64,000 nucleotides of DNA from Candidatus Poribacteria bacterium (GCA_958295945.1 OY282386.1:1303371-1367370), one strand, 5' to 3'. Numbered from the stretch's first letter, positions 20,911-50,368 are shown. Program-made: numbers and translations. The notes: generated by a model from the letters alone, not told the origin.

Positions 20911-21084
20911 GGGTGTGTAAGTTTTTGTCACTAACTTCTCACCAACCATTGTAGGGGCGGGTCTCTGTGCCCGCCCGTTGCCTTACAGGACAAGGAATGG
21001 CGGGGCACAGAGACCCCGCCCTACAATAGAGGACAGGTTTTTCACTTGAATTGACGTCTACGGTGACAAAAACTTTACACACCC
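20911..21084. repeat. composite palindrome: a REP pair (20951-20976 and 20999-21024, GTAGGGGCGGGTCTCTGTGCCCGCCC) nested inside 22-bp outer inverted repeats (AGGGTGTGTAAGTTTTTGTCAC / GTGACAAAAACTTTACACACCC)
   Basis: Read directly. Sits in a divergent intergenic region. Confidence 0.6.
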
Positions 21085-23371: not shown

Positions 23372-23446
23372 CATGAATTGGTATAGAGATTTTGGCAGAT
23401 GGTGTAATTAGGGAACAGCGCATTATGCGTCAAGTTAGTGCAATCG

Positions 23447-23612
23447 ATTTTGTCTGAACCAGGATTAGCAGGATTAGTAGATTTCCAGGATTATGAGTTT
23501 GGATTTGCAAAGTTCCTATTCACAATTTGACGTTTATTCTCTGGATGGCACTTTGATGTTTCAGACTCTTATCCTGGAAATCTGTAAATCCTGAAAATCC
23601 TGGTTCAGACAA
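23447..23612. repeat. MITE-like element with 43-bp imperfect terminal inverted repeats (GTCTGAACCAGGATTAGCAGGATTAGTAGATTTCCAGGATTAT / its reverse complement)
   Basis: Read directly. CCAGGATT / AATCCTGG sub-repeats. Lies upstream of the giant TPR gene. Confidence 0.45.
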
Positions 23613-23716
23613 GAATCAATAAACCCACTAAATCCAGTGGCGAGTTTGATTCAGTCTCTTAACTTTCGGTTAACATTAATGATTAAGCATTCTTAAAACT
23701 AAATAACCCTGGCAAA

Positions 23717-23743
23717 GGTGGGGCACAAAGAGACCCGCACTAC
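23717..23743. repeat. single degenerate REP-like hairpin, minus orientation: GTAGTGCGGGTCTCTTTGTGCCCCACC
   Basis: Same family as 20951 and 35524. Confidence 0.4.
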
Positions 23744-23858
23744 AATGTGTGGGAAGAAAAAGTCCTATCCTATCTAACAAATACGTCTCAAATATTATAT
23801 AAACCACATTCACCATTTTTCCATGTAAGAAATACGTATAACTCAAGGAGAATTCCCG

Positions 23859-26800
23859 ATGTTAGTCAAAAAATACATAATCTTGCTCAGTGTCTTTTCA
23901 GTATTTTTCTCAGGACTATTCTTTGTCACCCTAAGTTTTTCACAAGATGAAGCGACTGATGAAAAAATTATTGAACGATACAAGTTGATGCTCATTCGGA
24001 AACCGAAAGAGGGGAGTACGTTTGATAGACTTTATCAGTTTTATCTTGAAGGATCGGGTTTAGAAGCGATGGTCTCTGATTATCAATCGGAGGCACAGGA
24101 AAAACCTAACGATCCGAACATTCAACTTATCTTGGGGCATATATATAAACGACTGGGTAAGGACGAGGAAGCCTTGACTGCGTATCAACGCGCTGTGGAA
24201 CTCTCACAGAATGATTATTATGCACATTTTGCGTTAGGTCAGTTGTATGTGATACTCCGTCACCATGAAGATGCCATTAGTGAATTGACGAAAGCAACAT
24301 CGTTATCAGAACAGGCACAGACTATCTCTCCCGAAGAGTTGACAGATATTTACAAGACATTGGGGCATGCGTATTTTAGCCGCGATATGTTAGATGAAGC
24401 GATTAAGGCGTGGGAAAAGATTTCTGAACTTGATCCTGACGATATCTTTGCACGAATAGAACTGGCTGACCTGTTTCGTGAACAGGAGTTGTATACTCAA
24501 GCCATTGCACAATATGAAGAAATCATAAAACTTAAGAAAGATGACACATATCGTAAATGTTTGAGTATGCGGGAGATTGGGAAAATCCACGAAGAATCGG
24601 GTGAATATCAGAAGGCGTTGCAACAGTATGATGCGGCGTTAGACCTGACCGCACAAGGTAATTGGCTGAGAAAAGACTTGCAACACAGGATTATTGCCAT
24701 ATATTCGGCAGATGCAAATTGGAAAGACCTGATTGCTTATTATGATGTTAAACTTGAGACAAATCCGAATGATCCAGAAACTCTCGGTCTACTTGCTGCA
24801 GCGTATATTGAAAATCAGCAGCTTGAGGAAGGCATTGATACCTATAAGAAGGGATTAGCACTTGCCCCAACCGATACGGGACTTCGCCTCAGCCTGATAG
24901 GCGCGCTTCGTGATGCGGAAAAGTTTGAAGATGCGGCTGTGGAATATGAAACACTTAGTGAACAACACCCTGATGACATTGGAATATATCGCGAACTTGG
25001 AAAATTGTATCTGCAGCTTGAAAATGAAGAGCAGGCGAAGGGAGTTTATCAACGTCTGATTGATCGAGATCCGAAGAGTGCTAACATCTACATCACCCTT
25101 GCTGAAATATACACGGGGCACGAATGGCTTGAAGATGCGGTGGCTGCATATCAAAAGGCAACGGAACTTGATACTGATAATCTCGATTATATTGAGTATT
25201 ATGGGGACTTTTATTATAGACAAGGTGAAAGTCCGAAGGCGATTGAAACATGGAATCGGATGGTGGTAGACACCAAAAGCACTGCTGAGAACTATGACCG
25301 TTTGGCACGTCTACTTGAAACCAAAAAGTTTTCAGACGAGGCAATTGATGCAAGTAGAAAAGCGGTTGAATTGATGCCAGCGACTTATCGTTTCAGGGAG
25401 TCGTTAGCCAAAAGACTGATGAACAATGAGTTGTATGTCGAGGCACTCGTGGAATATACGGAAGCGATGAAGCTTGCACCGAATGCGTTTTTTGCTGAAC
25501 AGATGGACGACAAGCGGATTGAACTCTACAAACGGCAGGGAACACTTGTAAAAAGAATTGAAGAGATAGAAACAGAACTTGATACACCCGAACTTGCGGA
25601 TAACGATAAATTTGCACAACAGAAACGGCTTGCCAAGATGTATCTGAAGTTAGGTAATACTGCCTACGCGTTGGAAATTCTTTTGGATGCAAAGAAACTA
25701 CGACCCGACGATATAAATGTCAATCGTTGGGCAGCAAATATCTATGTCAAACAAGGAAGACGTGATGAAGCGATTAACATTTACCGTCATCTAACGAATA
25801 TTGATAACACAAATGCGCGTGAGTATTATTCTAATATAGCGAAAATTTATCTGGAAACTCTGGATTTTGAGAAGGCTAAGGAAGCTGCGAAACAGGTCGT
25901 CGCGCATAGTCCTCGTAATCCCGAGGGACATCACTTGTTGGCACAAATTGCTATGCAATCCGGTGATTACGACACATCTGTTGATAGTTTTAAACAAGCA
26001 ATTCGTTTGCGTCCGGAAGCGATTGATATCCGTAGTGAACTGGCACAACTTTATCACAATTCAGGTGACTTTAGACTTGCAATTGCACAGTATTGGCGTT
26101 GTTGGAATCTCAGCGACAATATCAGTGATAAGCTTAGTTTTATCCAACCACTGGGAGAAGCATATTATAGTTTAGGTAGGCGTACGGAACTCGCGGAAAG
26201 ATTGAAACAGATGGCTAAATCCCAGATGGCTATATCACAGACATCTGGGATTGCATCTGTCTTAGCTCTTGCCCAAGTCTATCGTAATGAAGGCGATCTA
26301 TCAAGTGCGCGTTTTCAGCTTGCACGCGCATTAGATCAGCGACGAGAGAACCCAGAACTATTATATCAACTTGTTGGCATAAGTTTAGACCTTGGTGATA
26401 TTGAGGAAGCTTTAAGTTATCAGCAGCAACTTGTCAAAGCAGATCCCGATCCTATTCATCAGCAAAAACTTGGTGAACTTTTGTTTGATGTTGGGCGCGA
26501 ACAAGAAGCCGTACAAACATGGTCAAAAGTGTTGCATCAAAAGAAGCATACACTTGATGCAGAAATCAGACTCGCAAAGTTATTGATTAGACACGGGTTA
26601 ATGGAGGAAGCATTCTTTGCCCTTGACAATGCAGCGGAAAAGATAACCGGGGCAGATGCATACATTGGGTTGTATCAAATTGGTGCTACTTTGGTTGAGA
26701 TAAGCGAACCTGAGAAAGCGTTACCATACTTCCAACAAATCGTAGAGATGTCAAAACCTGCACAGGGGACAGGTTTTGCTACAACAAAGAAAAAATCAAG

Positions 26801-29800
26801 AACTACTAATACGAATCCCAATTCCTTTTATGGTCCACCTGGGACAAATATATACAAACTTCATCTTGCCAGCATTCTCTCACAACGTGTGCAACCTCAG
26901 CAGTATTCTTCAAGAAATGTCTCTCCATGGGTTCCAACCACATTTGAAGAAGCACAGGCTGCCGCACTTGTGCAGGTGAAGTCGATCATGGATGATCTCG
27001 GTCAGTTGGATGACATGTTTGCTCAGTATGAGGAAAAAGTAACTGCGAATCCCAAGGATATCCAAACGCTTGAACTGTTAGCACAACTATACATTTTGAT
27101 GAAGAATCAAGAAAAAACAGATGAGGTATTAGATAAGTTGTTAACAGCCTCACCTGATAATTTAGTATATCAAGGCATTAAGTTAGGATTGTTGGTTGAT
27201 CAAGAGGGTTTTCAATATGATAGCTTCATAAATTATCTTGATAAGATGACTGGATTGACATTAGATGGAAAAAATTGGTATCTGTTAGAATTTGCCTCTA
27301 TATTCCTTAGTCAAGGAAAACGTGATTCAGCTGAGAAAATGTTGGATGAACTTGATGGAATGAATGTGCTTCAACTCAGTAATGGACATAGATTAATGGA
27401 TCTACTTGTAAGAATGGGGAGGATAGAACAAGCAGAAGAGATGCTATCGGAACTTCCTACGACAACTGGTGCACGCACTTCACAACAATATACACGCATA
27501 TATGAAACAGTATCTAACACATATCTCAGCAATGGAGATCCAGACAAAGCAATAGAATACTTTTGGAAATATATTGAAAAGACCAATCCAACAGTGTCCA
27601 ATACAAGGTATGTAGCAAGTTTGACTTATTCCACCTATTCGAGCAGCCAGACGTATCAAACCAATTTTCCATCACCTACATCGTACTATACTCAGACACG
27701 GTTGGATTTTCTGCAAAAGTTTTTCAATAAAATATGGATCAAAGAACAACAAGAACTATTCTACACAGTATTAGAGGATAAGTATAACGGTTCGGAAGGT
27801 AGAAATCGTATCTATCCAGCATTAGCTATTAGTTATTGTAAATGGTGGGATGGAAAACGAGACAAGTCGCTTGAAGTACTGAACAAGTTACAAGAGGAAT
27901 TCCCGGATGACCTATCATTAAAGATGAATACGATATTCGTTTCAATTCAATCTGGCAAATACAACGTAGCATTAGATGTTGTGAAGGAACTTATTCATTC
28001 GGATCCAAAGAATCTGAATCAATATTACGATCTGACATTACAAATTGCGATGTATACAGGCGATTCTTCTGTAGTGCGTGATTTGATGAAAAACATTTTG
28101 AACTCACCTACAAGTGTACAGCAGCTTCACAATTTCTCACAGAAATTGCAGAGTGTGGGATTCACACAATATGCTGTTGCTGTTTCACAAAAAGCGATGG
28201 ATTTAGTCTTGAGAGAAAGGGATCCGAGTTTTTTGAGAAAGTTTAGTACTCATTTAAACGATTTAGGTCGCGGGCAGGATGCTGCACGTTTGACTCAACG
28301 TGCAGCTAAGTTAGAAAATTTGAAAGTCTTGTCTGGGCAAACATTACCGAACATGAATATTCGATCGGTAACGCTTTCTCCTAAACGGTTAAAGATGATT
28401 CAAGATCGTGAGGCGAAATTAGTCAAAATAGTTGAACAGAATCCGAAATCCTTCAAAGCACAGTCCAATTTAGCCGCATTTTACTCAAGTAGAAATCAGG
28501 TGCAGAAAGCGATACAAACATATCAAGCAGCTCTTGAACTGCGTCCCAATGATAGCACGTTACGTAATCAATTTGCAGACATGTTACGGCGAGTCGGAGA
28601 AGCAAAAAAAGCAGTTGAACAATATACGTATCTACTCAAGAACAACATCTCTACTTCCCAATACAGTTACTATCAATATGGATATATCATAGAAACATTT
28701 ATCCAAGCAGGCGAAATAAAAAAACTTATTTCAATTGCCAAAGAAATGGTTGGGAATAATCAAGGTTCTGGACGTAGTAATGAATTTGTTCGTAGGATTG
28801 CTCAGCATTTTAGAAACAACAACAATAATGTTATACCACTGATTGAGATTTACGAAAAATCACTTGAGTCTGGATCAGAGACTCATTTTTATGACTTAGT
28901 TTCAGCATACATGTCTACCGGCAATCGTGATAAAGCAAGGCAACTATTAGTAGGTAAACTCAAGACCGGACCTGCGGAAAGACAAGTAAATGTGGTACTT
29001 AGGTTGTCTAATTTAGATGAAGGTTTAGATGATTTGAAGAATTTGGCAAAAGAATATGAGGAGAAGTTTCCTATGGATACTGCTGAATCTTCTATGTTAT
29101 ATCTACTTACTATCTTAAAAATAGCAACAAATGACTTAGAGGGGTCAGATATATATGTAGAAAAACTGTTGAAGAATAAATCCAATAATATTGGATCGTA
29201 TTGGCTTCATACGATTGCTAACGCATATCAGGACAAAGGGGATTCAGACCGTCAACAACGTATGCTTGAGGCTGCAATTGAAATCGTAGATCTAAATAAT
29301 ACCGGTCAACTATCAAACACCTACCAATCACTTGGTAAAATATACGCAGATAAAGGGGAGAAAGAGAAAGCGAAGAAAGCCATCCGAAAAATGGGTAATC
29401 TCCGCCTGATGCGTAGTGGTGGTGCTCGTTTTTATGATAAAGATACGGTCGCTCGCACATACATGGACCACGGTTTGTATGACGAAGCGGAAGTGTTGTT
29501 GATAGAAATCATCAACGACTTATCTGCACATTCATATTACCGTGAACGGGCTCAAGAACAATTAGTGACAATCAGAGTCAGACGTGGTGGGACAGACAAT
29601 AGATTGGAAAACACAATGGATGATATGAATATTGCCTTACTCCGTACAAAAGCACAAGAAGAAAAAGGAAGGGGAAACTACTACGAGGCAATTAGAATCT
29701 ACGAGCAGATAGTCAAAAAATCACCAGACGACCTTGGTTCGCGTGCTGAACTTGCTTCTCTTTACACATTGCAGAATGAACAAGATAAAGCAATTGAGAT

Positions 29801-32800
29801 GTGGGACGCTCTGCTAAAAGTTGATCCTGCAAATACAAAATATCAGGATGGACTTGTGGATGCATACAAAGTGGCAAATAGAATTGATGATGCGATTGAG
29901 TTTGCACAAGGATATATACAAGAGAATCCAGATACCGGTCTACACCATACTCGACTTGCAGATTTATATGCATTCAATGGACAGATTGACACTGCGATTA
30001 CAACCTATAAAAAGGCGATAGAACTCTCCCCGAGTGACGCTAAATCACATGAGGAATTAGCCAAACTTTATGAGAAAAATCGAAACTATGATGCTGCAGA
30101 AAAGTCGTATAATGATGCCCTAAAATTCTCAGCACCAGGGAGTAATCAAGCGAAGGTAAGACAGAGTTTGATGAAAATTTATCAACGTCAAGGAAAATTA
30201 GAGGAGATACTGAAACAAGCTGAAGAGCAGGGGACTCTGACCTTTGATATGCAACAGGAAAGAGCACGGATATATCAAAACAACGGAGATATGGAAAAAG
30301 CAGCGAGTGCATACCAAAAGGCTTTAGGAATGACAGCAGATAAATATGCACGCGGTGATATTCAACGGCAATTGATCAGCATCCATTCTAAACTTGGTAA
30401 ATTAGAGGAATATCTGAAGGAAACAGAGAAACAAGGAATGGTATCTTTTGAAATGCAGAGGGAGATTGCACGGTTATATCAAAATAAACGTGAATATGAT
30501 AAAGCGGCAGCTGCCTACAAGAAAGCTGCGCAAATGACTACACAATCTTATGAGCGGCGAGAACTTGAACGACAAATGATGCAACTCTATCGTCAATCCG
30601 GGAAGTTTGAGCAATTTCTAAAAGATATGGAAAAGGATGGCACCCTCTCTGCTGATATGCAGGTTGAGCTTGCAAAATACTACAGTTCACGTGGGAAATC
30701 CGAAAAAGCAATAGAAGCATATCAGAAGGCGAACAATATGACAGATAGCGACCAAGAGGAAATATCAAATCTGATGATGAATGAATTTGTTAAACTTGAC
30801 AAGACTGACAAAGCAATAGAAATATATGAAAGTCTCGTTAGCAATTCCTCAGAAAGTCAGTCAATTAGCTATTACAGCGGATCCTCTGGTTTCCGAATAC
30901 AATCTGAAAAAGAACAAGCACGTGAATCCTTAATTAACGTCTTTAAACGCAATAGAAAACTCAACGAACTTGAGAAGATTTACAGTACTAAGTTGGAAAA
31001 GGAACCGAATGATACAGATATTCTTACTGTTTTAGCCGAGATACACCGCAATTCTAAAAATTATGAAAAAGCTGCAGAAGTCTATCAGAATCTATGTAAA
31101 ATAGAACCAGAGAATGTTCGCAATTATTTTTATGCTGCTGCGTCTCTTGAAAAAATTGGACAGAAAGAACAGTCGCAAGCATTGATAGAACAAGGGAATA
31201 ATGCCCTTTCGTCGAGACCAGACAATAAAGATTCCATGTTGTTATGTACACTTGGTTCTATCTGCTATGAAAGCAAAATGTATGAACCGGCAATTACATT
31301 GTTCAAAGAAGCAGCTAAAGTGAATGAATTGACAGGTATCAATAGTAATATCCGATGGCAACAAGAGAATATATATGAAATACTTGGCAAAAGTTATATG
31401 GAAACCAAGCAGTATGAGGAAGCAGTTGAGGCGTATCAGCATAAACTGAAACTTACGACACATGATCATTCCAGAGAGAGAATTGAAAAGGCAATTAAAC
31501 AAGCCTATGATGCGGGGAATCTCCACGAGAAACATATTCCAGAACAGTTGGAAAAGGTCCAACAGAATCCGAATGATGTCAATGCAAGAATTACACTTGC
31601 TGAGAGTTACGTGTCAAGTGAGAGGTATGACGAGGCAATTGTTCAGTTTGAGAAGATCAGCGAATTGCAACCGAACTCTCCGAAATGGCACAAAACTGTA
31701 GGGGATTTATACGGAAAGACTAAACAGACTAACAACACAGAATGGCTACAAAAAGCTGCAACTGCGTATGAGAAAGCAATTGCACTGGATCCGAATTCCT
31801 ATGAATTCTATGACACTTTAGCAAAGTTGTATGCGGAAAACGGTGATTCTACAAAAGCCGAAGCAGTCTATATAAGAGCACTGAATGCATCCCACAATCC
31901 AGATGAACATGATAAGGTCGTCAATGCCATTTTGGATCTTGATAAGTCATATAGGGAATTAGACAAACGGCTTGAGAAACTTGAAGAAATCAATACAAAA
32001 AAACACCATAGCACACTTTTACATAAACTATTGGGTGATACCTATTTAGCTTCAGGTGATACGGAAAAAGCCTCTGTATCTTATAAGAAGTGGTTGGAGA
32101 TAGTGAAAAAAGAAAGTGAGAAAGGTAAGCGTGCGATGGCATTATATCAATTTGCTGAACATCTGTTGGATACAAACAAACTACCAGAGATTGCATTAGA
32201 GGCAGCAAAGCATGCAACGCAAGCCAGATCGGATGCAACCTATTTCTCAACATTAGGCAACGCCTATCTGGTCAATGAACAATTTGAAAATGCATTTGAA
32301 CAATTTGAACGAAGTTTTAACCTTATGAATCAATCCGGCGGTTTGCGCGGTAACAAGTTAGAACCTTTATTGAGACGTATTTCACAAGCGATCGAAAATA
32401 TGCAAGATAAGTCTCGGTATCAGGAACTGATGGGTAAACTAATTGATTCAATCCCGACTGATGTTGACACTGAACTTGAAACCATCTTGTTATTGGCAGA
32501 TTTCTGTCGTAAACTCAATTTGACTGATAAGGCAAAGGCATTCGTACAGAAAACGGGTTTCTTCCCTCAAACTGCTTGGTTAATACTCGGTCCGTTTGAC
32601 AATGCGAACGGTGTTGGATATAGTACTGCTTTCATTCCTGAAGAACAGACGCAAATTGATAAAACCGCAGAATATGATGGGGTAACAGGTAAGATAAAAT
32701 GGGTCAAAAGTTCTGATGAGATCTTTGATGGGTTCTCCGACTTTGGTATGTATGAGCAATTCTATGCCGCTTATGCCTGGATTTCATTTACATCCCCTGA

Positions 32801-33056
32801 AGAGAGGGAAGCAGAAATCCGATTTGATAGTGATGACCAAGGTAAAGTGTATTTGAATGGTAAAAAAGTATATGCACATAGAAGAACACGGGGTGCGACC
32901 ATTGACCGACGCACTATTCCTGTAACGCTTGCTGCAGGAGAAAACACTATCCTTGTCAAAGTCTGCAATGAATCTCTACCGTGGGGATTCTATTTGCGCA
33001 TTACTGATACGGATGGAAATCCTTTTGATGATTTGAAAGTCGTAGATACTGAATAG
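23859..33056 (+). CDS. giant secreted TPR-repeat protein (3065 aa) with a C-terminal galactose-binding-like beta-sandwich domain
   Basis: AAGGAGA RBS, signal peptide and dozens of TPR units. The C-terminal 150 aa (LGPFDN ... FRFDSDDQGKVYLNGKKV ... LVKVCNESLPWGFYLRITDTDGN) are shared with the 708-aa paralog. Confidence 0.85.
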   Translation: MLVKKYIILLSVFSVFFSGLFFVTLSFSQDEATDEKIIERYKLMLIRKPKEGSTFDRLYQFYLEGSGLEAMVSDYQSEAQEKPNDPNIQLILGHIYKRLGKDEEALTAYQRAVELSQNDYYAHFALGQLYVILRHHEDAISELTKATSLSEQAQTISPEELTDIYKTLGHAYFSRDMLDEAIKAWEKISELDPDDIFARIELADLFREQELYTQAIAQYEEIIKLKKDDTYRKCLSMREIGKIHEESGEYQKALQQYDAALDLTAQGNWLRKDLQHRIIAIYSADANWKDLIAYYDVKLETNPNDPETLGLLAAAYIENQQLEEGIDTYKKGLALAPTDTGLRLSLIGALRDAEKFEDAAVEYETLSEQHPDDIGIYRELGKLYLQLENEEQAKGVYQRLIDRDPKSANIYITLAEIYTGHEWLEDAVAAYQKATELDTDNLDYIEYYGDFYYRQGESPKAIETWNRMVVDTKSTAENYDRLARLLETKKFSDEAIDASRKAVELMPATYRFRESLAKRLMNNELYVEALVEYTEAMKLAPNAFFAEQMDDKRIELYKRQGTLVKRIEEIETELDTPELADNDKFAQQKRLAKMYLKLGNTAYALEILLDAKKLRPDDINVNRWAANIYVKQGRRDEAINIYRHLTNIDNTNAREYYSNIAKIYLETLDFEKAKEAAKQVVAHSPRNPEGHHLLAQIAMQSGDYDTSVDSFKQAIRLRPEAIDIRSELAQLYHNSGDFRLAIAQYWRCWNLSDNISDKLSFIQPLGEAYYSLGRRTELAERLKQMAKSQMAISQTSGIASVLALAQVYRNEGDLSSARFQLARALDQRRENPELLYQLVGISLDLGDIEEALSYQQQLVKADPDPIHQQKLGELLFDVGREQEAVQTWSKVLHQKKHTLDAEIRLAKLLIRHGLMEEAFFALDNAAEKITGADAYIGLYQIGATLVEISEPEKALPYFQQIVEMSKPAQGTGFATTKKKSRTTNTNPNSFYGPPGTNIYKLHLASILSQRVQPQQYSSRNVSPWVPTTFEEAQAAALVQVKSIMDDLGQLDDMFAQYEEKVTANPKDIQTLELLAQLYILMKNQEKTDEVLDKLLTASPDNLVYQGIKLGLLVDQEGFQYDSFINYLDKMTGLTLDGKNWYLLEFASIFLSQGKRDSAEKMLDELDGMNVLQLSNGHRLMDLLVRMGRIEQAEEMLSELPTTTGARTSQQYTRIYETVSNTYLSNGDPDKAIEYFWKYIEKTNPTVSNTRYVASLTYSTYSSSQTYQTNFPSPTSYYTQTRLDFLQKFFNKIWIKEQQELFYTVLEDKYNGSEGRNRIYPALAISYCKWWDGKRDKSLEVLNKLQEEFPDDLSLKMNTIFVSIQSGKYNVALDVVKELIHSDPKNLNQYYDLTLQIAMYTGDSSVVRDLMKNILNSPTSVQQLHNFSQKLQSVGFTQYAVAVSQKAMDLVLRERDPSFLRKFSTHLNDLGRGQDAARLTQRAAKLENLKVLSGQTLPNMNIRSVTLSPKRLKMIQDREAKLVKIVEQNPKSFKAQSNLAAFYSSRNQVQKAIQTYQAALELRPNDSTLRNQFADMLRRVGEAKKAVEQYTYLLKNNISTSQYSYYQYGYIIETFIQAGEIKKLISIAKEMVGNNQGSGRSNEFVRRIAQHFRNNNNNVIPLIEIYEKSLESGSETHFYDLVSAYMSTGNRDKARQLLVGKLKTGPAERQVNVVLRLSNLDEGLDDLKNLAKEYEEKFPMDTAESSMLYLLTILKIATNDLEGSDIYVEKLLKNKSNNIGSYWLHTIANAYQDKGDSDRQQRMLEAAIEIVDLNNTGQLSNTYQSLGKIYADKGEKEKAKKAIRKMGNLRLMRSGGARFYDKDTVARTYMDHGLYDEAEVLLIEIINDLSAHSYYRERAQEQLVTIRVRRGGTDNRLENTMDDMNIALLRTKAQEEKGRGNYYEAIRIYEQIVKKSPDDLGSRAELASLYTLQNEQDKAIEMWDALLKVDPANTKYQDGLVDAYKVANRIDDAIEFAQGYIQENPDTGLHHTRLADLYAFNGQIDTAITTYKKAIELSPSDAKSHEELAKLYEKNRNYDAAEKSYNDALKFSAPGSNQAKVRQSLMKIYQRQGKLEEILKQAEEQGTLTFDMQQERARIYQNNGDMEKAASAYQKALGMTADKYARGDIQRQLISIHSKLGKLEEYLKETEKQGMVSFEMQREIARLYQNKREYDKAAAAYKKAAQMTTQSYERRELERQMMQLYRQSGKFEQFLKDMEKDGTLSADMQVELAKYYSSRGKSEKAIEAYQKANNMTDSDQEEISNLMMNEFVKLDKTDKAIEIYESLVSNSSESQSISYYSGSSGFRIQSEKEQARESLINVFKRNRKLNELEKIYSTKLEKEPNDTDILTVLAEIHRNSKNYEKAAEVYQNLCKIEPENVRNYFYAAASLEKIGQKEQSQALIEQGNNALSSRPDNKDSMLLCTLGSICYESKMYEPAITLFKEAAKVNELTGINSNIRWQQENIYEILGKSYMETKQYEEAVEAYQHKLKLTTHDHSRERIEKAIKQAYDAGNLHEKHIPEQLEKVQQNPNDVNARITLAESYVSSERYDEAIVQFEKISELQPNSPKWHKTVGDLYGKTKQTNNTEWLQKAATAYEKAIALDPNSYEFYDTLAKLYAENGDSTKAEAVYIRALNASHNPDEHDKVVNAILDLDKSYRELDKRLEKLEEINTKKHHSTLLHKLLGDTYLASGDTEKASVSYKKWLEIVKKESEKGKRAMALYQFAEHLLDTNKLPEIALEAAKHATQARSDATYFSTLGNAYLVNEQFENAFEQFERSFNLMNQSGGLRGNKLEPLLRRISQAIENMQDKSRYQELMGKLIDSIPTDVDTELETILLLADFCRKLNLTDKAKAFVQKTGFFPQTAWLILGPFDNANGVGYSTAFIPEEQTQIDKTAEYDGVTGKIKWVKSSDEIFDGFSDFGMYEQFYAAYAWISFTSPEEREAEIRFDSDDQGKVYLNGKKVYAHRRTRGATIDRRTIPVTLAAGENTILVKVCNESLPWGFYLRITDTDGNPFDDLKVVDTE

Positions 33057-33307
33057 CGAATTGTCTGAACCATGATGAATCGGCGGGATTAGAACCCTCC
33101 AACAATGTCCGAAGCGCAATGAATTGCACGACTCCAAACGCTTTCTTTGTTAATAATTAGAAATTGAATAACCCACCAAACTGCATCCGAAAATGTGTAT
33201 ATGTAATTATACACACTACAATTATTGTGTCTTACAAACCCTATGAAGTCGGCTTTCAACGTCAACCCTAAAATATTATTCATATCACAATCTCAAGGAG
33301 GAATTAG

Positions 33308-35434
33308 ATGACAAAATACAACAAAATAAACATCTATTGTCTACTAACAATCATCTTCTTTAGTTTCAGTTTCTCATTACCATCTTTTGCACAGGATAAT
33401 GAGATCAGTGAAAATATTGAAGATGTGATTGATGTTGCATTAGATTTAGACGGTGAATTGAGTTACGTAGAAATTGATGATAGCGAAATATTAAATGAAA
33501 TTAACGGACAAGTAACGGTGTGTGCTTGGATTAAAGCAACAAACTTTCCTACCAGATATCTACCAATCATATACAAAGGGGATGAACGTCTGCCCGGTAT
33601 CACAAACCGTAGTTTTGTGATGTATCTACGACATGATGGTGCGTTGCAATTCGCTTCTTCACCTGATGGAAAAAATGAGAAGTATATCTTCTCACCAATG
33701 GGTGCAGTCAAACTCAATAAATGGCATCATGTTGCTGGCGTTGTGGACACGACGAGAAATATCATCAGTGTCTATGTTGATGGTGTGGAAGCAGGTTATA
33801 GAGATTTTGGTAGAAACAGAAGATTTTATGAAAGCACACTACCATTAAAAATCGGTGGCACACATGAAGAGACTAATCATAACCACAGATCGTTTGTCGG
33901 ACAGATTGATGAGGTAAGCGTCTGGGATGTTGCCTTGACTGAAGAACAAATCCAAAACAATATGAATAACCGTTTGACAGGGAATGAAAGAGGATTGGTC
34001 GGTTATTGGAAATTTGATAAACAGAATGATGGTGAAATTTCCGATATGACCCATAATAAACTCAATGGGAAGTTGGTTGAAAACGCAAGATTAATAGATT
34101 ACATCCGTCCTATTCCAACAGGACTAAATCCAGAACAGCTTGAAAAACAAGCAATTCTATATGAAAAAGCACTCAAACGTGGAACAGTTTCTTATGAGAT
34201 ATACAGCACACTCGCTGAAATATATCTCAAAACAGGACGTACTGCTGAAGCGGAGAAAATATACGGACAGTCTTTAGAGGTGGATCTCAGACAGTCTGAA
34301 CATGGCGAGGCAATGAAAGCACTGTGGCAATTATATGATAGTGCAGGGAAAGAAAAAGCATTTATCACACTATTGGAAAAGTTGAAACAGGATATGCAAA
34401 AAAGTTCAGTCCTGTTTGAACTCTTAGGTGAGGCGTACACTAAAGTTGGTGACAAACAGAATGCGAAGGATGCCTACGCACAATGGATCAATCTGCGAAA
34501 AGATGAAGTTTTTCAGCAAGGTCTGTCATCTGCATATTATGAACTTGCGGATAAACTTCTTGAGAAAAACATATTTCCTGAAATCGCGTTGGAGTTGGTT
34601 TTAAATGCAGCAGATGTTGAACTGGACAGAGATTACATATTAGTGCTGGCACATGCATTCGTCGCGAATGAACAGTATGATGAAGCATTCCGACTCATAA
34701 AAAACATCTATGATATGTCTTATCTGCCCTTTGTTGAACGAAGGTTATTAACGCGGGTTGCAAAAGCAGGTAAAACTGTCAAGGATAAAGAAGGCTATGA
34801 GAATATGTTGAATGAGCTCATAGAATCTGTGTCAGACAATTTACGTTCTCAACTTCAGACAATGCTTGTTTTGGCACAAACCTATCAGGAAACCGGAGAA
34901 CACGAAAAGGCTGATGACCTTATTCGGAAAACAGGATTTATCACAGAAGATGCATGGCTGGTTCTTGGTCCTTTTGATAACTCGGGTGGGATAGGCTACA
35001 ATACACAGTATATCCCAGAAAACTTGCCGAGGATTGATACTTCCAAAGAATATGAAGGAAAAAATGGTACGGTACGTTGGAAAAAGATAAAGAACATTTC
35101 ACTCTTAGGAGATATCCGTTTAGGTAAAGAGACTGATTGGAGTGTTGCGTATACTTTTGCAACAATCCATTCACCTGATGAACGTGAAGTTGAATTTCGT
35201 TTTGATTCAGACGACCAAGGCAAAATCTGGGTTAACGGTATTGAAGTTTTCACACATACCAAGACGTTTACTGCGGAAATTGACAATTTCAAATTTCCTG
35301 TAAAACTGAATGCAGGGTTAAATAGTGTTCTCGTCAAGGTATGTGAACAAACAGGTGGCTGGGGATTTTATCTGCGAATAACCAACAAAGATGGTAATAC
35401 TTATGATGATTTAGATTTTATGAAAGTAGAGTAA
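33308..35434 (+). CDS. secreted LamG (concanavalin-A-like lectin) - TPR - galactose-binding-like-domain protein (708 aa)
   Basis: AAGGAGGA RBS and signal peptide. Laminin_G_3-like block (ALDLDG ... WHHVAGVVD ... VYVDGVEA ... IDEVSVWDVALTEEQI). C-terminal domain paralogous to that of the giant protein. Confidence 0.8.
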   Translation: MTKYNKINIYCLLTIIFFSFSFSLPSFAQDNEISENIEDVIDVALDLDGELSYVEIDDSEILNEINGQVTVCAWIKATNFPTRYLPIIYKGDERLPGITNRSFVMYLRHDGALQFASSPDGKNEKYIFSPMGAVKLNKWHHVAGVVDTTRNIISVYVDGVEAGYRDFGRNRRFYESTLPLKIGGTHEETNHNHRSFVGQIDEVSVWDVALTEEQIQNNMNNRLTGNERGLVGYWKFDKQNDGEISDMTHNKLNGKLVENARLIDYIRPIPTGLNPEQLEKQAILYEKALKRGTVSYEIYSTLAEIYLKTGRTAEAEKIYGQSLEVDLRQSEHGEAMKALWQLYDSAGKEKAFITLLEKLKQDMQKSSVLFELLGEAYTKVGDKQNAKDAYAQWINLRKDEVFQQGLSSAYYELADKLLEKNIFPEIALELVLNAADVELDRDYILVLAHAFVANEQYDEAFRLIKNIYDMSYLPFVERRLLTRVAKAGKTVKDKEGYENMLNELIESVSDNLRSQLQTMLVLAQTYQETGEHEKADDLIRKTGFITEDAWLVLGPFDNSGGIGYNTQYIPENLPRIDTSKEYEGKNGTVRWKKIKNISLLGDIRLGKETDWSVAYTFATIHSPDEREVEFRFDSDDQGKIWVNGIEVFTHTKTFTAEIDNFKFPVKLNAGLNSVLVKVCEQTGGWGFYLRITNKDGNTYDDLDFMKVE

Positions 35435-35523
35435 ATAGTGTAGGAGATTAATTGGAATATCATTCGTTGCTATATCTGATTCTCACCGTATTCATCTTAA
35501 AGGGAACTAACTCTCCACACATT

Positions 35524-35597
35524 GTAGTGCGGGGTCTCTGTGCCCCGCCGTCATTTCCGTAATTTAGACATGGTGGGGCACAGAGACCTCGCACTAT
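35524..35597. repeat. REP pair in inverted orientation: GTAGTGCGGGGTCTCTGTGCCCCGCC ... GGTGGGGCACAGAGACCTCGCACTAT
   Basis: Read directly. Intergenic between two TPR genes. Confidence 0.55.
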
Positions 35598-35651
35598 ATA
35601 AGATATATGAGATACACTCTAACAATTCAACTCATTAGGAGATATTTTTAT

Positions 35652-38600
35652 ATGACATGTTCAAAATTGTCTTTCTGCTTTGTAATTTTCATGTTAATCA
35701 CAGTAGGTACTTTCATAGCAGGACTTGAAGCGCAAGACACCGAAGAAAATAACACACCGCTACAAGATTTCATCAATGAAGCACAAACGTTAGTGCGATG
35801 GAACCAATTAGATGAAGCAATAGAAATCTACGAAAGAATAGTGATAGCAGCACCCGAAGACTATACATCTCTATTAGAACTCGCAACGCTTTACTCACGC
35901 ACAAATCAACATGAAAGCGCGGCGCAAACCTATGGCGAACTGCTTGAATTTGACACAGAAAATATAACCTATCAGGATGGACTTGTTAGCAGCTTACAAG
36001 CTGCTGGTAAATACGATGAGGCACTTGAACTCGCGCAGTCCTACATCCAATCAGATCCAACAGTAAGTAAACACTACGCACGACTCGGAAGACTCTATGA
36101 AGTTGAGGGTAATGAACATGCTGCCATCGCTAACTATAAGAAAGTAATTGAATTAGCAACCGGTGATAAACAAACGTATCTTAAGCTCGCAAAACTATAT
36201 TTTCTCAATGAAGACATAGATGCTACAGAAATGGCGTTGAAGAATGCCATTCTATCGCCCACATCCGCATCAGCGCGACAAGGTATTGAACGGCAATTGA
36301 TCAGTTTTTATCGCTATCATGGGAATTTAGGAGAGAAGTTACAACAAGCTGAAAATGATGGGACAATCACATTCCAGATGCTGAAAGTCCTTGCCGAATA
36401 CTACAACAAAACCGGAGAACTGGACAATGCTGCTAATGCCTATAAGCGGGCACTTGACATGACAACCAGTTCTTCTGAGAAAGTTAGAATCTTTGCTGAA
36501 TTGTTCAAGGTATATATTCAACTCGGTGATATGGATTCGGTAATAGAACCTTATGAAACAGAGGCGAATTTGTCTATAAACAGCAAAACATTGTTCTACA
36601 CTTCTGAAAGAATTACAGTGACATCGGCAAGAATTGCACCAATATACAAATTTGAGACTGCACGTGACACATTGATTGGTGCTTTCAAGAGCCAAGATAA
36701 ACTTGAAGTGTTAAAAACATATTATGAAGGTAAACTTCATGAAAATGATGAGAATCCTGTTGCACGAACAATATTGGCAAGGATATATTGGGATGAAAGG
36801 GATTATCAAAAATCTGCTGAAATGTCCGAAGCACTTGGCAAAGCAGATTCTAACAATGTCCGTTATTTTTATTATGCTGCAGCTGCATTAAAAAGAAACA
36901 AACAACCTGAATTAGCCGATGAAATGCTTAATCAGGCGAAAACAGCACTTGCAGCCTGTAGCGAGAAAGATGACCCGTGGTTTCTTGGTTCACTTGCAAC
37001 AATCTGCAATGAAAATAGAATGTTTGAACCAGCACTTGAACTCTCCAAATCTGCCATTGAAATGAGTGAGAACGAAAAAGATAGTAGGATTCTGGATACT
37101 TTGCATGGAATACTTGCGAAGAGTTATCGTGAGACAAAACAGTACGAAGAAGCTCTTGACATATATCAGAATATGGCAAGCATAGAAAGGAATATCAGCG
37201 TCCGAAATAGGGCAAATAACGCGATCCGGGAAATCATCAAAGAGGGAAAACTATATGAAAAACTGATTCCTGAACAACTGAAGAATGTTGAGAAAAGCCC
37301 TAACAATCCAGAGATGATCTTGGAACTCGCGGAGAGTTATGAAGCCATAGATAATATCAAAGAAGCAATTGTGCAATATGAAAAACTTGCGGAACTGGAA
37401 CCTGAAAGAAGCTACGTCTACAGGAAGTTGGGTGACTTGTATCAAAAAGTGGATCGTGAGGTAGAGGAGGTAATGGAGGACAATGCACTTAGCTTAGATG
37501 GAGATGGGAGTTACGTTGAAATCGTGGACAGTGAGATGATTGACAATATCTCCGAACAAGTTACGATATCTGCATGGATCAAACCAACAGATTTTCCAAA
37601 CACCTGTACGACTGTACTTTTCAAAGGCAACAAACGAACACCTGATCATTCTCATCGTCAATTCGCGCTCTGGTTGTTTGATGAAGGTCTCGCTTATTTT
37701 GACGCATCCCCTAACGGTCTTTATATAAGATGGATTGCCTCTGAAAGCGAATCTATCCAAAGAAATCAATGGTACCACGTAGCAGGAACCATTGATGCCA
37801 AGAATGACAGTATAAAGTTATATCTAAACGGTACTGAAGTCAGAACAAGTAATTTTAAGGGACAGAGAAATTTGACTAAGACCACACTGCCATTGCGAAT
37901 CGGTTGTTCGCATGAAGAAGAAATATCTGAGCACGCATCATTTGCTGGACTAATTGATGAAGTGCGGGTTTGGAACATCGCGCGCACTGAAAATCAAATC
38001 CGTTCAGATATGTCCAAGCAGCTGAAAGGAGATGAAGCCGGTTTAGTAGGTTATTGGAAATTTGATGCAGAAACTGAAGGACGCGTTTCCGATAGTTCAC
38101 TCAATAAAAATGATGGCAAACTTGTTGGAAATGCTAAACTTGAACCTTACACTCGTCCAATTTTGGCAAGTTTAAAAGCTGATAACTTGACAAAGGCTGC
38201 ATCCTATTATGAAAAAGCCATTGAACTCAGACCAACTACATACCAGTATTATGATCGGTTAGCAAAATTATATATGGATCAGAACCAGGTATCAGATGCT
38301 GCCTATGTATATCGACGAGCATTAGACGCACGATTTAGACAAACAACCCTTGAAACAATAATTCGCGCTATCTCCGAACTTTACATTGATGAAGGGCAAG
38401 AGGACAAACTCATTGCTATCCTTGAGGAAGTAAAACCGAAAATGCAGGAGAGCGTGGTCCTGCACGGACTTTTAGGTGATCTCTACAAAAAAATAGGTGA
38501 TGCCGATAAAACTGAAATTGTAAACGCGAAGTGGTTGAAATTGAGAGAGCAAGAGGTGAACATACAGGATACACATTACCAACGTTGGTTTGCTGAAGAA

Positions 38601-38924
38601 CTTCTTGAAAAAGGTATATATCCAGAAACATCACTAAAATATGCCACACGTGCGATACAAGACAATGCGAAAATTAGCTATCACTTCCCACTGACACTTG
38701 GACGTGCGTATGTCGCGAATGATCGCTATGACGATGCACTGAGATATTTCAAATATGCGCTAAGTATTCTCTCTGCCAATGATTCATTGGATGATTATTG
38801 GAAAAAAGTCACCGATGCAAGCAAGAATGCAAACGACAAAGAACGTTACACACAAATGTTAGATGCGTTGAAAAATTCCATTCCACCAGAATACGCAAGT
38901 TCGGTGCAAATGTCTGCCGAATAA
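35652..38924 (+). CDS. secreted TPR - LamG - TPR protein (about 1090 aa). 3'-truncated paralog lacking the C-terminal galactose-binding-like domain
   Basis: Start moved to ATG 35652 (MTCSKLSF..., signal peptide, AGGAGA RBS). LamG block (LSLDGDGSYVEI ... WYHVAGTID ... LYLNGTEV ... IDEVRVWNIARTENQI). Shares the LLEKGIYPE ... AYVANDRYDDA module with the other two proteins but ends where they continue. Confidence 0.8.
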   Translation: MTCSKLSFCFVIFMLITVGTFIAGLEAQDTEENNTPLQDFINEAQTLVRWNQLDEAIEIYERIVIAAPEDYTSLLELATLYSRTNQHESAAQTYGELLEFDTENITYQDGLVSSLQAAGKYDEALELAQSYIQSDPTVSKHYARLGRLYEVEGNEHAAIANYKKVIELATGDKQTYLKLAKLYFLNEDIDATEMALKNAILSPTSASARQGIERQLISFYRYHGNLGEKLQQAENDGTITFQMLKVLAEYYNKTGELDNAANAYKRALDMTTSSSEKVRIFAELFKVYIQLGDMDSVIEPYETEANLSINSKTLFYTSERITVTSARIAPIYKFETARDTLIGAFKSQDKLEVLKTYYEGKLHENDENPVARTILARIYWDERDYQKSAEMSEALGKADSNNVRYFYYAAAALKRNKQPELADEMLNQAKTALAACSEKDDPWFLGSLATICNENRMFEPALELSKSAIEMSENEKDSRILDTLHGILAKSYRETKQYEEALDIYQNMASIERNISVRNRANNAIREIIKEGKLYEKLIPEQLKNVEKSPNNPEMILELAESYEAIDNIKEAIVQYEKLAELEPERSYVYRKLGDLYQKVDREVEEVMEDNALSLDGDGSYVEIVDSEMIDNISEQVTISAWIKPTDFPNTCTTVLFKGNKRTPDHSHRQFALWLFDEGLAYFDASPNGLYIRWIASESESIQRNQWYHVAGTIDAKNDSIKLYLNGTEVRTSNFKGQRNLTKTTLPLRIGCSHEEEISEHASFAGLIDEVRVWNIARTENQIRSDMSKQLKGDEAGLVGYWKFDAETEGRVSDSSLNKNDGKLVGNAKLEPYTRPILASLKADNLTKAASYYEKAIELRPTTYQYYDRLAKLYMDQNQVSDAAYVYRRALDARFRQTTLETIIRAISELYIDEGQEDKLIAILEEVKPKMQESVVLHGLLGDLYKKIGDADKTEIVNAKWLKLREQEVNIQDTHYQRWFAEELLEKGIYPETSLKYATRAIQDNAKISYHFPLTLGRAYVANDRYDDALRYFKYALSILSANDSLDDYWKKVTDASKNANDKERYTQMLDALKNSIPPEYASSVQMSAE

Positions 38925-39155
38925 ATATCAACCTGAGTATAATTTGTATTTGAGATAACGAAATGAAATATCCAATAACACTTTTTCTGGTTCTTTCTAT
39001 AGTATTGAGTTGTTCATCAGTTGAATACGTTGATATACCTGATGATAACTTAGCTGCAGCGATACGTGACAATCTCGGATTATATCAAGACGACACTATT
39101 ACACGCCGTCAACTAAGTAAACTAACAAAACTATCTGGGCCACAAAGAAATATAA

Positions 39156-50348: not shown

Positions 50349-50368
50349 GCGAGATTTTGATGTCTAAG

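Follow-up and report, generated by a model that had tools for sequence, protein, structure and literature searches.

Three paralogous TPR proteins of a Candidatus Poribacteria bacterium with LamG and PA14-like domains: candidate exported glycan-binding adaptors

Three neighbouring genes, A, B and C, in a stretch of 64,000 nucleotides of Candidatus Poribacteria DNA (hereafter the window; GCA_958295945.1, OY282386.1:1303371-1367370) encode paralogous proteins in which tetratricopeptide repeats (TPR) are combined with LamG domains and a PA14-like C-terminal domain (CTD). On present evidence, the chances are about even that these proteins act as multivalent glycan-to-protein adaptors, in which an exported TPR scaffold bears glycan-binding modules of the calcium type. 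As proposed here, each protein would be Sec-exported and extracytoplasmic, its TPR solenoid carrying either one or two beta-sandwiches of lectin type. The CTD would bind carbohydrate by way of a calcium ion, which a conserved Asp-Asp pair and a Gln, Asn or Glu residue would hold, as in PA14 sensor and adhesin modules, the LamG domain of B and C would provide a second ligand site, and the TPR part would hold protein partners. Such an adaptor would work in the periplasm, at the cell surface or beyond it, and its targets would probably be sponge-matrix or dissolved polysaccharides. Binding to glycans or host surfaces had already been suggested in an initial annotation of this DNA, and it is likewise an inference here.

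The window comes from a sponge-symbiont lineage, which agrees with the parallel to sponge symbionts drawn in the initial annotation. Few uncultivated sponge symbionts are as abundant as Poribacteria, and their many repeat proteins are habitually called 'host-interaction factors' without a mechanism. The cluster offers a concrete and testable module, namely a 160-aa PA14-like domain with a putative Asp-Asp calcium-site signature on TPR/LamG carriers with predicted export signals. Confirmation of binding would point to the glycans recognised in the sponge matrix. In single-cell genomes of Poribacteria, TPR is the commonest repeat class and TPR genes often carry signal peptides or transmembrane (TM) helices (PMC3909097). 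PhyH, WD40 and LRR genes are abundant in that study of the same phylum, as they are in the window. However, it reports Pfam repeat counts in which the words 'laminin', 'concanavalin' and 'lectin' do not occur, the function of TPR proteins was not tested there, and neither the TPR-LamG-CTD architecture nor the CTD nor its sigma-fused relatives are described (PMC3909097). No published description of this family in Poribacteria was found in the literature searched.

Table 1. Features of the A-B-C cluster and its flanks (positions counted from the first letter of the window)
Feature	Position	Strand	Details
MITE-like palindromic element, 163 bp	23450..23612	.	42-nt inverted termini starting with the 16-mer
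Gene A	23859..33056	+	ORF and translation; 3065-aa giant TPR protein, predicted exported, with CTD, without LamG
A, predicted Sec signal peptide	23859..23942	+	aa 1-28, SFS|QD; h-region hydropathy 2.58, two K/R before
A, TPR block common to N-terminal half of C	29982..31721	+	aa 2042-2621; BLASTP 32%/590 aa, E 6e-73
A, conserved TPR module preceding CTD	31734..32558	+	aa 2626-2900; BLASTP A2626-3065 vs B274-708, 37%
A, CTD, predicted PA14/GH2-N-like beta-sandwich	32559..33053	+	aa 2901-3065; CTD profile domain E 3e-72
Solo 16-mer terminus copy	33061..33076	+	15/16 bases; 5 nt past A stop codon
Gene B	33308..35434	+	ORF and translation; 708-aa LamG-TPR-CTD protein, predicted exported
B, predicted Sec signal peptide	33308..33391	+	aa 1-28, SFA|QD; manual criteria
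B, LamG/pentraxin-type beta-sandwich	33428..34105	+	aa 41-266
B, TPR-like helical module	34130..34933	+	aa 275-542; 15 helices (secondary structure of model) and TPR families
B, CTD	34937..35431	+	aa 544-708; SDD motif at D635-D636, polar residue E680
Second palindromic repeat, B-C spacer	35525..35596	.	25-nt arms, GGYGGGGCACAGAGACC core
Gene C	35652..38924	+	1090-aa TPR-LamG-TPR protein, predicted exported, without CTD; longest ORF from 35607
C, predicted Sec signal peptide	35652..35732	+	27 aa, LEA|QD; h-region hydropathy 2.74
C, Laminin_G_3	37497..38000	+	aa 631-798 (1105-aa ORF numbering); Pfam 3.6e-28, 99 bits

The three open reading frames were found at the coordinates first given for them (Table 1), and their description as paralogs is borne out by BLASTP, in which A2626-3065 matched B274-708 (37% identity, E 2e-91), B30-517 matched C616-1101 (39% identity, E 3e-109) and A2042-2621 matched C67-615. 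The motifs LLEKNIFPEIALE and AYVANEQYDEA, previously named as marks of a conserved TPR module, are present in the translations of all three genes. Gene C most likely starts at the ATG at 35652 rather than at 35607, because an AGGAGA ribosome-binding site (35637-35642) lies 9-10 nt upstream and public gene calls give a protein of 1090 aa. The ratio dN/dS is 0.19-0.25 for A (orthologs at loci L004 and L008), 0.15-0.17 for B and ~0.31-0.35 for C, the highest of the three; with values of 0.15-0.35, all three genes are under purifying selection and functional constraint. P0117, which also has 3065 aa, and other giants of similar length were considered as relatives of A and rejected, as they have only CTD-like modules in common with it.

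Several TPR families above threshold, together with a helical-pair architecture, identify the repeats in A, B and C. In A, the best Pfam family is TPR_2 (328 bits), and TPR_19 occurs in 10 stretches; in C, TPR_19 scores 100.6 bits. The AF2 model of full-length B, based on an alignment of database homologs, has a pLDDT of 84 and a pTM of 0.69. Laminin_G_3 (PF13385) had been noted in two of the proteins. With a gathering score of 27.6 bits, the family was recovered in B at 94.8 bits (residues 49-216) and in C at 99 bits; the fold is of the LamG/pentraxin type, and a Pfam scan did not find the family in A. The junction between the two TPR blocks of A that are listed in Table 1 is the exact site at which LamG lies in C, as it also does in giants of other loci that have this domain (at about residues 2480-2700 in the latter). 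Sequence identity of the B/C-type LamG domain to known LamG/pentraxin-type domains (BACOVA_03559, PTX3/SAP/CRP, neurexin LNS and CBM40) is just 13-23%. The whole window contains no LamG or CTD copies beyond two of each.

The same domain terminates A and B, in keeping with the initial annotation, and neither a third copy nor a remnant was found anywhere in the window. It had been called uncharacterised, and indeed no Pfam or NCBIfam model was reached at threshold, but the domain is not rare: the family is large and lineage-expanded, with no fewer than 9,077 cluster representatives at E<=1e-10, and extends to non-symbiont lineages such as Candidatus Caldatribacteriota. With some 9,000 cluster representatives and no Pfam or NCBIfam match of the window CTDs at threshold, defining this family would allow better annotation of thousands of entries now named 'tetratricopeptide repeat protein' or 'hypothetical protein'.

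A confident structure model of the CTD (pLDDT 87.5, pTM 0.87) predicts a beta-sandwich that superposes on solved PA14 modules and has the same jelly-roll as the GH2 N-terminal domain (PF02837), the latter being the best structural match of the model. The likeness to galactose-binding-like GH2 domains that was first proposed is upheld for the predicted fold, whereas the conserved motif is closer to that of PA14 than to GH2_N. GH2_N is the only Pfam signal on the window CTDs (E 4e-4), with 20.8 bits in A and 15.2 bits in B against a gathering score of 28, PDB profile matches to GH2 enzymes reach just E 0.008-0.03, and the strands 'vWlNG ... G.N.l.VkV' are common to both families. However, the Asp-Asp pair of the CTD lies outside the aligned GH2_N segment, falling on 'GAVDW' in chain 7sf2, and A and B, in both of which the CTD is the last domain, have no GH2 catalytic barrel or other glycosidase domain. 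GH2-N-type domains are mostly structural, and they are not known to be independent, free-standing lectins.

On the PA14 side, PF07691 gave no match to the CTDs of A and B even at E<=10; among distant family members, P0039 (24.6 bits) reaches the gathering score of 24, while P0037 (23.5 bits) and P0116 (23.0 bits) do not. A profile of 40 CTDs matched the PA14 of RsgI3 at E 1.8e-3, with the CTD motif 'GsDDgvkvWlnG' aligned on VTDDGVRLWVDG of PA14-A and VANGGVRVWINN of PA14-B. In RsgI3 from C. thermocellum (PDB 6QE7), these sites are the DcisD calcium/sugar positions, and the N-G variant PA14-B bound neither calcium nor pectin (PMC6852018). At sequence level, the Asp-Asp pair and 'G..W.nG' align residue by residue between the RsgI modules and the CTD; further likenesses are a polar Gln/Asn on a later loop and a location at the C-terminus, on the extracytoplasmic side. 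Among 40 diverse domains, 39 conserve D92, the residue at position 93 is Asp (35 domains) or Glu (four), and position 137 is Q, N, E, H or D without exception. In PA14 lectins, a tyrosine stabilises the cis Asp-Asp peptide (PMC6852018); its counterpart is not obvious in the CTD, where a reading of the sequence places Val. The PA14 adhesins (Flo5, Epa/Cea1 and the Marinomonas and Marinobacter RTX adhesins) are cell-surface proteins that have long stalks of repeats and carry signals for anchoring or secretion, whereas in A and B the domain is borne by a TPR solenoid that has a plain Sec signal, and the stabilising Tyr is not evident.

The conservation of these polar residues also bears on a different and improbable reading, by which the proteins would be periplasmic scaffolds for envelope or exopolysaccharide assembly, like the TPR parts of BcsC, PgaA, PrsT and LapB, their beta-sandwiches serving only as structural parts or protein contacts with no lectin activity. 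The TPR regions do show a weak NCBIfam likeness to these four proteins, the genes upstream include an amidase_3 and a GHL10 gene, and the mostly structural use of GH2-N-type domains would be in line with such a role. However, the NCBIfam scores are far under their cut-offs (PrsT 120.6 vs 312 bits), as expected of generic TPR similarity, and a porin, barrel or synthase partner is absent. Further, a purely structural role would leave the Asp-Asp and Gln/Asn conservation across the 40 domains unexplained. The neighbours in the window, among them PhyH, amidase, GHL10 and WD40 proteins and a Bat/MoxR operon, offer no functional link.

In other Poribacteria, the LamG-TPR-CTD cassette is reused as the ectodomain of membrane proteins fused to an ECF sigma factor. 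The protein at locus L029 (OZ242381.1) consists of Sigma70_r2/r4, a TM helix (223-241), Laminin_G_3 (320-486), TPR and a CTD (821-976); its layout is that of protein B's body preceded by an ECF sigma domain and one TM helix. CTD paralogs with a sigma domain and a TM helix are also present at L019, L018 and other loci, and proteins of the type sigma-TM-WD40-...-CTD make up ~18 of the 98 family ORFs at the fetched loci. The CTD is also found in the arrangements signal peptide-WD40-CTD and signal peptide-Trypsin_2-TPR-CTD. Genes for sigma-TM-WD40-CTD, signal peptide-WD40-CTD and giant TPR-CTD proteins stand in tandem at L016 and L030, and sigma-fused, WD40-CTD and giant TPR-CTD genes do so at L020 as well.

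These architectures resemble RsgI in that a PA14-like module is coupled via one TM helix to a sigma-factor system. They differ from it in that the poribacterial membrane forms carry the ECF sigma factor in the same polypeptide, not an anti-sigma-I domain, that A, B and C lack a TM helix as well as any sigma or anti-sigma domain, and that the window CTDs fall below the PF07691 threshold. In Planctomycetes, there are ECF sigma factors that have a transmembrane helix and are extended at the C-terminus by WD40. The poribacterial relatives share Sigma70_r2/r4, one TM helix and WD40 with these but add TPR and the PA14-like CTD, or have LamG-TPR in place of WD40, and A, B and C are soluble, sigma-less versions.

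A tentative and rather unlikely alternative is that A, B and C are signalling accessories, soluble proteins that would catch a ligand by LamG or CTD and dock by their TPRs on ECF-sigma-TM-(WD40/LamG)-TPR-CTD sensors, so that, in the role of co-receptor, ligand shuttle or decoy, they would tune the release of the sigma factor. The identity of the cassette with the L029 ectodomain, the tandem genes and the likeness of the CTD to the PA14 sensor module of RsgI anti-sigma factors are consistent with this. However, no sigma or anti-sigma domain was found among the window ORFs scanned against Pfam, and a common domain is also expected from a reusable binding module. The broader proposal that LamG-TPR-CTD is an extracytoplasmic glycan-sensing cassette in two forms, one a membrane form with ECF sigma and TM helix and the other a soluble, Sec-exported form (A, B and C) that captures host or dissolved glycans and feeds or tunes the sensors by TPR docking, is unlikely in our estimation. 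If true, it would mean that a dominant, uncultivated sponge symbiont has a host-glycan signalling network not described before, and the CTD would be a new and very large calcium-dependent carbohydrate-binding family.

The adaptor reading includes export past the inner membrane, which the N-termini suggest for all three proteins. Signal peptides had been ascribed to A, B and C, and each N-terminus has a K/R n-region, a hydrophobic core and an AXA-like site by manual n/h/c criteria (mean Kyte-Doolittle hydropathy >2.4 over 12 residues, small residues at -1/-3), with h-region hydropathies of 2.4-2.7. In the B model, the N-terminus forms a helix (2-20) followed by a disordered linker (20-38). The cleavage pattern of C is also found in paralogs at L075, L076 and L078, and an 'A|Q[DE]' pattern is repeated in divergent paralogs. 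Apart from the N-terminal signal segment, A, B and C have no transmembrane or hydrophobic segment, and no lipobox. A crude family-wide signal-peptide filter was rejected as evidence, as it was passed by 59 of 98 family ORFs and by 99 of 216 controls; the evidence for export is therefore limited to individual N-termini and the conserved cleavage motif. In a diderm bacterium, a Sec signal guarantees arrival in the periplasm and nothing further. No secretion system, surface anchor or dedicated effector-delivery signal was identified for A, B or C. A role of the CTD as a C-terminal sorting tag, of the T9SS or another kind, was also considered and rejected: the CTD of A and the CTD region of full-length B gave no match to TIGR04183 or PF18962 (NCBIfam at E<=1, and likewise in Pfam), and other family members have the domain at internal positions too, or have 2-7 copies of it.

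Predicted export in a sponge-symbiont lineage invites the distinctly unlikely reading of A, B and C as host-directed 'eukaryotic-like' repeat proteins, which would be released into the sponge mesohyl or cells. There, the TPRs would disturb host protein complexes, for example in avoidance of phagocytosis, and host surfaces would be the targets of the lectin modules. The signal peptides and the prominence of TPR among poribacterial repeat classes, often with signal peptides or TM helices (PMC3909097), agree with it. However, neither a dedicated secretion signal or effector-delivery system nor a T9SS sorting domain was seen, the same cassette is also wired to bacterial sigma factors, and the CTD family is very large and includes the non-symbiont Candidatus Caldatribacteriota.

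Protein C, with a LamG domain and no CTD, had been described as 3'-truncated exactly where the CTD would begin. Its actual end lies ~27-30 residues before the point at which the CTD of B starts, and therefore the last helix pair is missing too. The description as a local truncation does not hold either, as orthologs in four other genomes (70-86% identity) terminate without a CTD on the identical residue. Given these orthologs and the dN/dS of ~0.31-0.35, the missing CTD is an old and maintained domain loss. Truncation by the IS1 element at 39155-40078, 230 nt 3' of C, was considered and rejected; IS1 splits the next gene, an LRR-WD40 lipoprotein gene starting at 38964, and is flanked by an 8-bp target duplication, AAATATAA. 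It is highly improbable, and already contradicted by existing evidence, that C or the whole cluster is decaying and that C is a pseudogene truncated by a rearrangement near IS1. The absence of the paralogs' CTD from C, the nearby IS1 element and the highest dN/dS of the three would speak for decay; against it stand the position of IS1 and its target duplication in the lipoprotein gene, the common end of the orthologs, a dN/dS that indicates constraint, and the lack of any CTD remnant past the stop codon of C.

A 16-mer near-identical repeat had been reported at 23448 and 33062 as flanking the giant gene. The repeat is present, but at 23450 and 33061, and with a third, inverted copy at 23597-23612; three matches were found at <=2 mismatches, compared with 0.06 expected by chance. 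The pair does not flank gene A as a unit, as one copy forms a terminus of the 163-bp MITE-like element, whose family is dispersed, and a duplication or insertion signature around A was accordingly rejected. The arms of this element (23450-23491 and 23571-23612) are 88% complementary, and it is found elsewhere in Poribacteria loci, with paired copies at L022 and L054. The position equivalent to that of the solo terminus is also occupied in the ortholog locus (L004:8051). A promoter and terminator scan of 23300-39200 was uninformative, giving 45 promoter-like and nine terminator-like signals against 46.1 and 9.7 in shuffles. The second palindromic repeat, in the B-C spacer, has six copies in the window at <=3 mismatches, against 0.05 expected.

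Pfam found a massive TPR signal in the proteins encoded by the neighbouring genes A and C, together with Laminin_G_3 domains in B (residues 49-216, 94.8 bits) and C (631-798, 99 bits) and none in A, in keeping with the initial annotation, which had placed LamG domains in two of the three proteins. In both A and B, the final ~160 residues form a C-terminal domain (CTD), and no further copy of the CTD or of LamG occurs anywhere in the window. The signal peptides proposed for all three proteins were borne out by manual n/h/c-region criteria. Each has a Lys/Arg n-region, a 12-residue core with a mean hydropathy of 2.4-2.7 and a cleavage motif of small residues with Gln-Asp directly after it (SFS/QD in A, SFA/QD in B, LEA/QD in C), with no lipobox and no additional hydrophobic segment. 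Many divergent paralogs of other genomes show the '...A/Q[DE]' pattern as well, which argues that it is functional. The predicted export, in a diderm, is across the inner membrane only, and any location beyond it is one that we infer. A model of full-length B (33 sequences, pLDDT 84, pTM 0.69) comprises a helix (2-20), a disordered linker (20-38), LamG (41-266), fifteen helices (275-542) and the CTD (551-692).

The AlphaFold2 model of the CTD (23 sequences, pLDDT 87.5, pTM 0.87) is all-beta, and the galactose-binding-like jelly-roll suggested earlier is correct at the level of fold. The domain had also been called uncharacterised, and indeed no Pfam or NCBIfam model matched it at threshold: GH2_N scored 20.8 bits with the CTD of A and 15.2 bits with that of B against a gathering score of 28, and NCBIfam gave no match for the CTD of A or for full-length B across the CTD region. 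When a profile of 40 mutually diverse domains was compared with solved proteins, the matches were the insert domain of sialate 9-O-acetylesterase (E 8e-4), the PA14 of RsgI3 (E 1.8e-3) and GH2_N (E 7.7e-3). The family motif 'GsDDgvkvWlnG' aligns with 'VTDDGVRLWVDG' of RsgI3 PA14-A and 'VANGGVRVWINN' of PA14-B. The RsgI3 structure paper assigns this Asp-Asp pair to a DcisD calcium site in contact with the sugar and reports no calcium or pectin binding for PA14-B, which has Asn-Gly there (PMC6852018). Among the 40 domains, 39 retain the first Asp, and at the second position 35 have Asp and four have Glu; residue 137 of the CTD numbering (E680 in B), on a later loop, is Q, N, E, H or D throughout, resembling the Asn/Gln of the DcisD-N signature. 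Known PA14 lectins have a Tyr that stabilizes the cis peptide, of which the CTD has no evident counterpart. With PF07691, for which the gathering score is 24, some family members reach 23.0-24.6 bits. In our reading, the CTD belongs to the GBD/PA14 fold group as a divergent PA14-like domain with a plausible calcium/sugar site, without formal membership of the Pfam families PF07691 or PF02837.

LamG and the CTD would be putative carbohydrate-binding modules carried on a TPR scaffold, and we give about an even chance to A, B and C being exported TPR scaffolds that present calcium-type carbohydrate-binding modules in the periplasm or outside the cell. Here we infer glycan binding from fold and motif, and contact with host material from the Sec signal. 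TPR proteins are known to abound in sponge symbionts, and the three proteins could also be host-directed effectors; no secretion-system partner domain was found among the Pfam-scanned ORFs of the window, and this role appears unlikely. Marginally less likely still are purely structural envelope scaffolds, a role that would leave the strong conservation of the Asp pair of the CTD unexplained.

A scan of one genome per species gave at least 521 confirmed CTD-coding stretches, of which the best 80 all carry Poribacteria titles apart from a few labelled 'uncultured bacterium'; the nearest among the matches listed are 91% and 90% identical. B-like proteins of 700-725 aa form ~48 clusters, named only 'tetratricopeptide repeat protein' or 'hypothetical protein [Candidatus Poribacteria]'. 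Against 1.84 billion cluster representatives, the CTD profile matched 15,640 at E<=1e-3, 9,077 at E<=1e-10 and 626 at E<=1e-30, one named member belonging to Candidatus Caldatribacteriota. Of the 147 top-ranking representatives, 117 have their last copy at the C-terminus and 68 contain at least two copies; because some copies sit N-terminally or internally, a role of the CTD as a C-terminal sorting tag was ruled out. Five giants of 3060-3288 aa (P0077, P0117, P0136, P0165 and P0176) carry three CTD-like modules each; kinship with gene A was rejected, as only these modules are in common, and the length of 3065 aa in one of them is a coincidence.

Across 79 loci, the CTD was found in 120 ORFs, in each of them as the final domain, and the genes often form tandem arrays; their architectures in Poribacteria fall into five classes (Table). 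Class (iii), with a trypsin-like protease domain, is exemplified by L047:8831-10507, with similar ORFs in L044, L052, L058 and L059. Two tandem CTDs end the proteins at L064:239-10501, L072:266-10501, L076, L078 and L011 (minus strand), recalling the PA14 dyads of RsgI proteins. Class (iv) accounts for ~18 of 98 ORFs. The class (v) protein shares 41% identity with the LamG-TPR portion of C; it is protein B in its main body, the signal peptide being replaced by a sigma factor and a membrane anchor. Single polypeptides with ECF sigma regions 2 and 4, one TM helix, WD40 or LamG-TPR and the CTD were also seen in L019, L018, L025, L043, L016 and L021, and sigma-less versions beginning at the TM helix occur in some loci (e.g. 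L027:7043-10510). These architectures show the cassette to be an extracytoplasmic module, which the lineage also employs as the sensor end of sigma regulators that cross the membrane within a single polypeptide. RsgI anti-sigma factors offer a direct parallel, since PA14 dyads are among their extracellular sensors (PMC6852018).

Table. Features of the window and architecture classes of CTD proteins
Feature	Position	Strand	Size	Remark
Gene A	23859-33056	+	3065 aa	ORF
Gene B	33308-35434	+	708 aa	ORF
Gene C	longest ORF 35607-38924; preferred 35652-38924	+	1090 aa	
Eco57I-like restriction-modification gene adjoining SNF2-PLD helicase	3462-10026	minus		
TnpB/IS605-type ORF	15396-16655	minus		
IS1 transposase ORF	39167-40003	minus		
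MoxR-DUF58-BatA-VWA ('Bat') operon	46279-56017	plus		
Second palindromic repeat	20960-21015, 23717-23733, 35525-35596, 60378-60394			core GGYGGGGCACAGAGACC
Class (i)			~700 to 3400 aa	signal peptide-TPR(-LamG)-TPR-CTD; class found in window
Class (ii)			~1000 aa	signal peptide-WD40-CTD
Class (iii)			~560 aa	signal peptide-Trypsin_2-TPR-CTD
Class (iv)			1250-1435 aa	ECF sigma (Sigma70_r2 + r4)-one TM helix near 225-243-WD40-CTD
Class (v)	L029:7559-10504 (OZ242381.1)		982 aa	Sigma70_r2/r4, TM helix 223-241, Laminin_G_3 320-486, TPR, CTD 821-976

In L016 and L030, class (iv), class (ii) and class (i) giant genes stand in tandem, and L020 has a comparable run of a sigma-fused gene, a shorter CTD gene (528 aa) and a giant. 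Such runs would suit the main rival to the carbohydrate-binding scaffolds, in which A, B and C are accessory partners that capture ligands for sigma-fused sensors; no sigma domain was found among the Pfam-scanned ORFs of the window, and we hold this rival to be rather improbable, though the strongest of those considered. Upstream lie, on the opposite strand, genes for a sulfatase, TnpB, GHL10 and amidase_3 and, on the same strand, genes for PhyH and a 269-aa protein without family match. Downstream are an IS-split LRR-WD40 gene, a WD40 gene and the MoxR/DUF58/BatA/VWA operon, and farther away a restriction-modification gene, an SNF2-PLD helicase, PrmC and RF-1. Among the Pfam-scanned ORFs, no glycan-utilization partner domain was found either. 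Abundant PhyH, WD40, LRR and TPR are typical of Poribacteria (PMC3909097).

The components of these proteins (TPR, LamG and the PA14/GBD fold) are known in kind. What is new is a PA14-like domain family of very large size without a Pfam or NCBIfam match at threshold, the way it has expanded in the Poribacteria lineage on carriers with TPR, LamG and WD40, and the recurrence of the cassette on membrane proteins fused to an ECF sigma factor, none of which was found described in the literature searched.

The ORFs of A, B and C all run in the same direction, with AAGGAG-type ribosome-binding sites upstream of A and of B. The first ATG of C adjoins a palindromic repeat; the second was preferred because a convincing ribosome-binding site (AGGAGA) precedes it and public gene calls of identical sequence give the same length. 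The proposed paralogy was confirmed by pairwise BLASTP matches at 32-39% identity, in a mosaic pattern: A2626-3065 matches B274-708 (37%, E 2e-91), B30-517 matches C616-1101 (39%, E 3e-109) and A2042-2621 matches C67-615 (32%, E 6e-73). The C-matching and B-matching blocks of A abut at 2621/2626, the exact place of LamG in C. P0049, a LamG-bearing giant of 3149 aa from another Poribacteria genome, is 54% identical to A across the first 2190 residues, and its residues 2482-3144 and 1905-2950 match B (51%) and C (45%), respectively. Together, these overlaps show that the family shuffles four pieces: an extended stretch of TPRs at the N-terminus, a TPR block resembling that of C, LamG, and a unit made of TPR and CTD.

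Gene C had been described as 3'-truncated exactly where the CTD would begin. This did not hold: C stops ~27-30 residues short of the CTD start point in B, the ATG of the next gene lies 40 nt past it and no CTD remnant exists 3' of C. Orthologs in four other genomes (L004, 86% identity; L008, 85%; L075 and L005, 70%) span 1084-1118 codons stop to stop with a common end point, and L075 also has a paralog of 1322 aa, 52% identical to C, with LamG and CTD. Against orthologs, dN/dS (Nei-Gojobori) is 0.19-0.25 for A, 0.15-0.17 for B and 0.31-0.35 for C. The common end point and this level of dN/dS mark the CTD-less form as old and maintained, neither recently truncated nor a pseudogene. Decay of C or of the whole cluster is essentially excluded. 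Members may be lost sporadically: the B ortholog at L008:8372-10381 (670 codons, with residue 104 as the first Met) and the A ortholog at L005:6762-7937 (only a 392-codon C-terminal piece) both have a disrupted or fragmented look, assembly errors being possible. Truncation of C by an IS1-family element (39155-40078; inverted ends GAGGGTGTTAAC..., 8-bp target duplication AAATATAA) was ruled out, as the element lies in the next gene, an LRR-WD40 lipoprotein-like gene (38964-42509) whose 5' part runs from ATG 38964 (MKYPITLFLVLSIVLSC...). Two near-identical metagenome contigs, L002 and L003, carry the same insertion.

A 16-mer (TTGTCTGAACCAGGAT) had been taken for a direct repeat flanking gene A. 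It occurs at 23450 (+), at 33061 (+, one mismatch) and also inverted, at 23597-23612 (-), three matches in the window against 0.06 expected by chance. The first two copies along the window are the outer ends of the 42-nt inverted termini of a 163-bp element (23450-23612), and the terminus, paired or solo, was found in six other Poribacteria loci (L022, L026, L033, L049, L054 and L066). The element is a dispersed MITE-like or palindromic repeat, and the 16-mer on either side of gene A has no evident meaning for the gene. In the ortholog locus L004, a copy (8051) sits at the post-stop position matching 33061-33076, and copies of the terminus often lie directly 3' of stop codons. A second palindromic repeat family (six copies of its core with up to three mismatches in the window, against 0.05 expected) occurs in the B-C spacer and other intergenic sites. 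Two of its copies are hairpin-capable inverted pairs, the one in the spacer with 25-nt arms, and it may be a REP-like, regulatory or terminator element.
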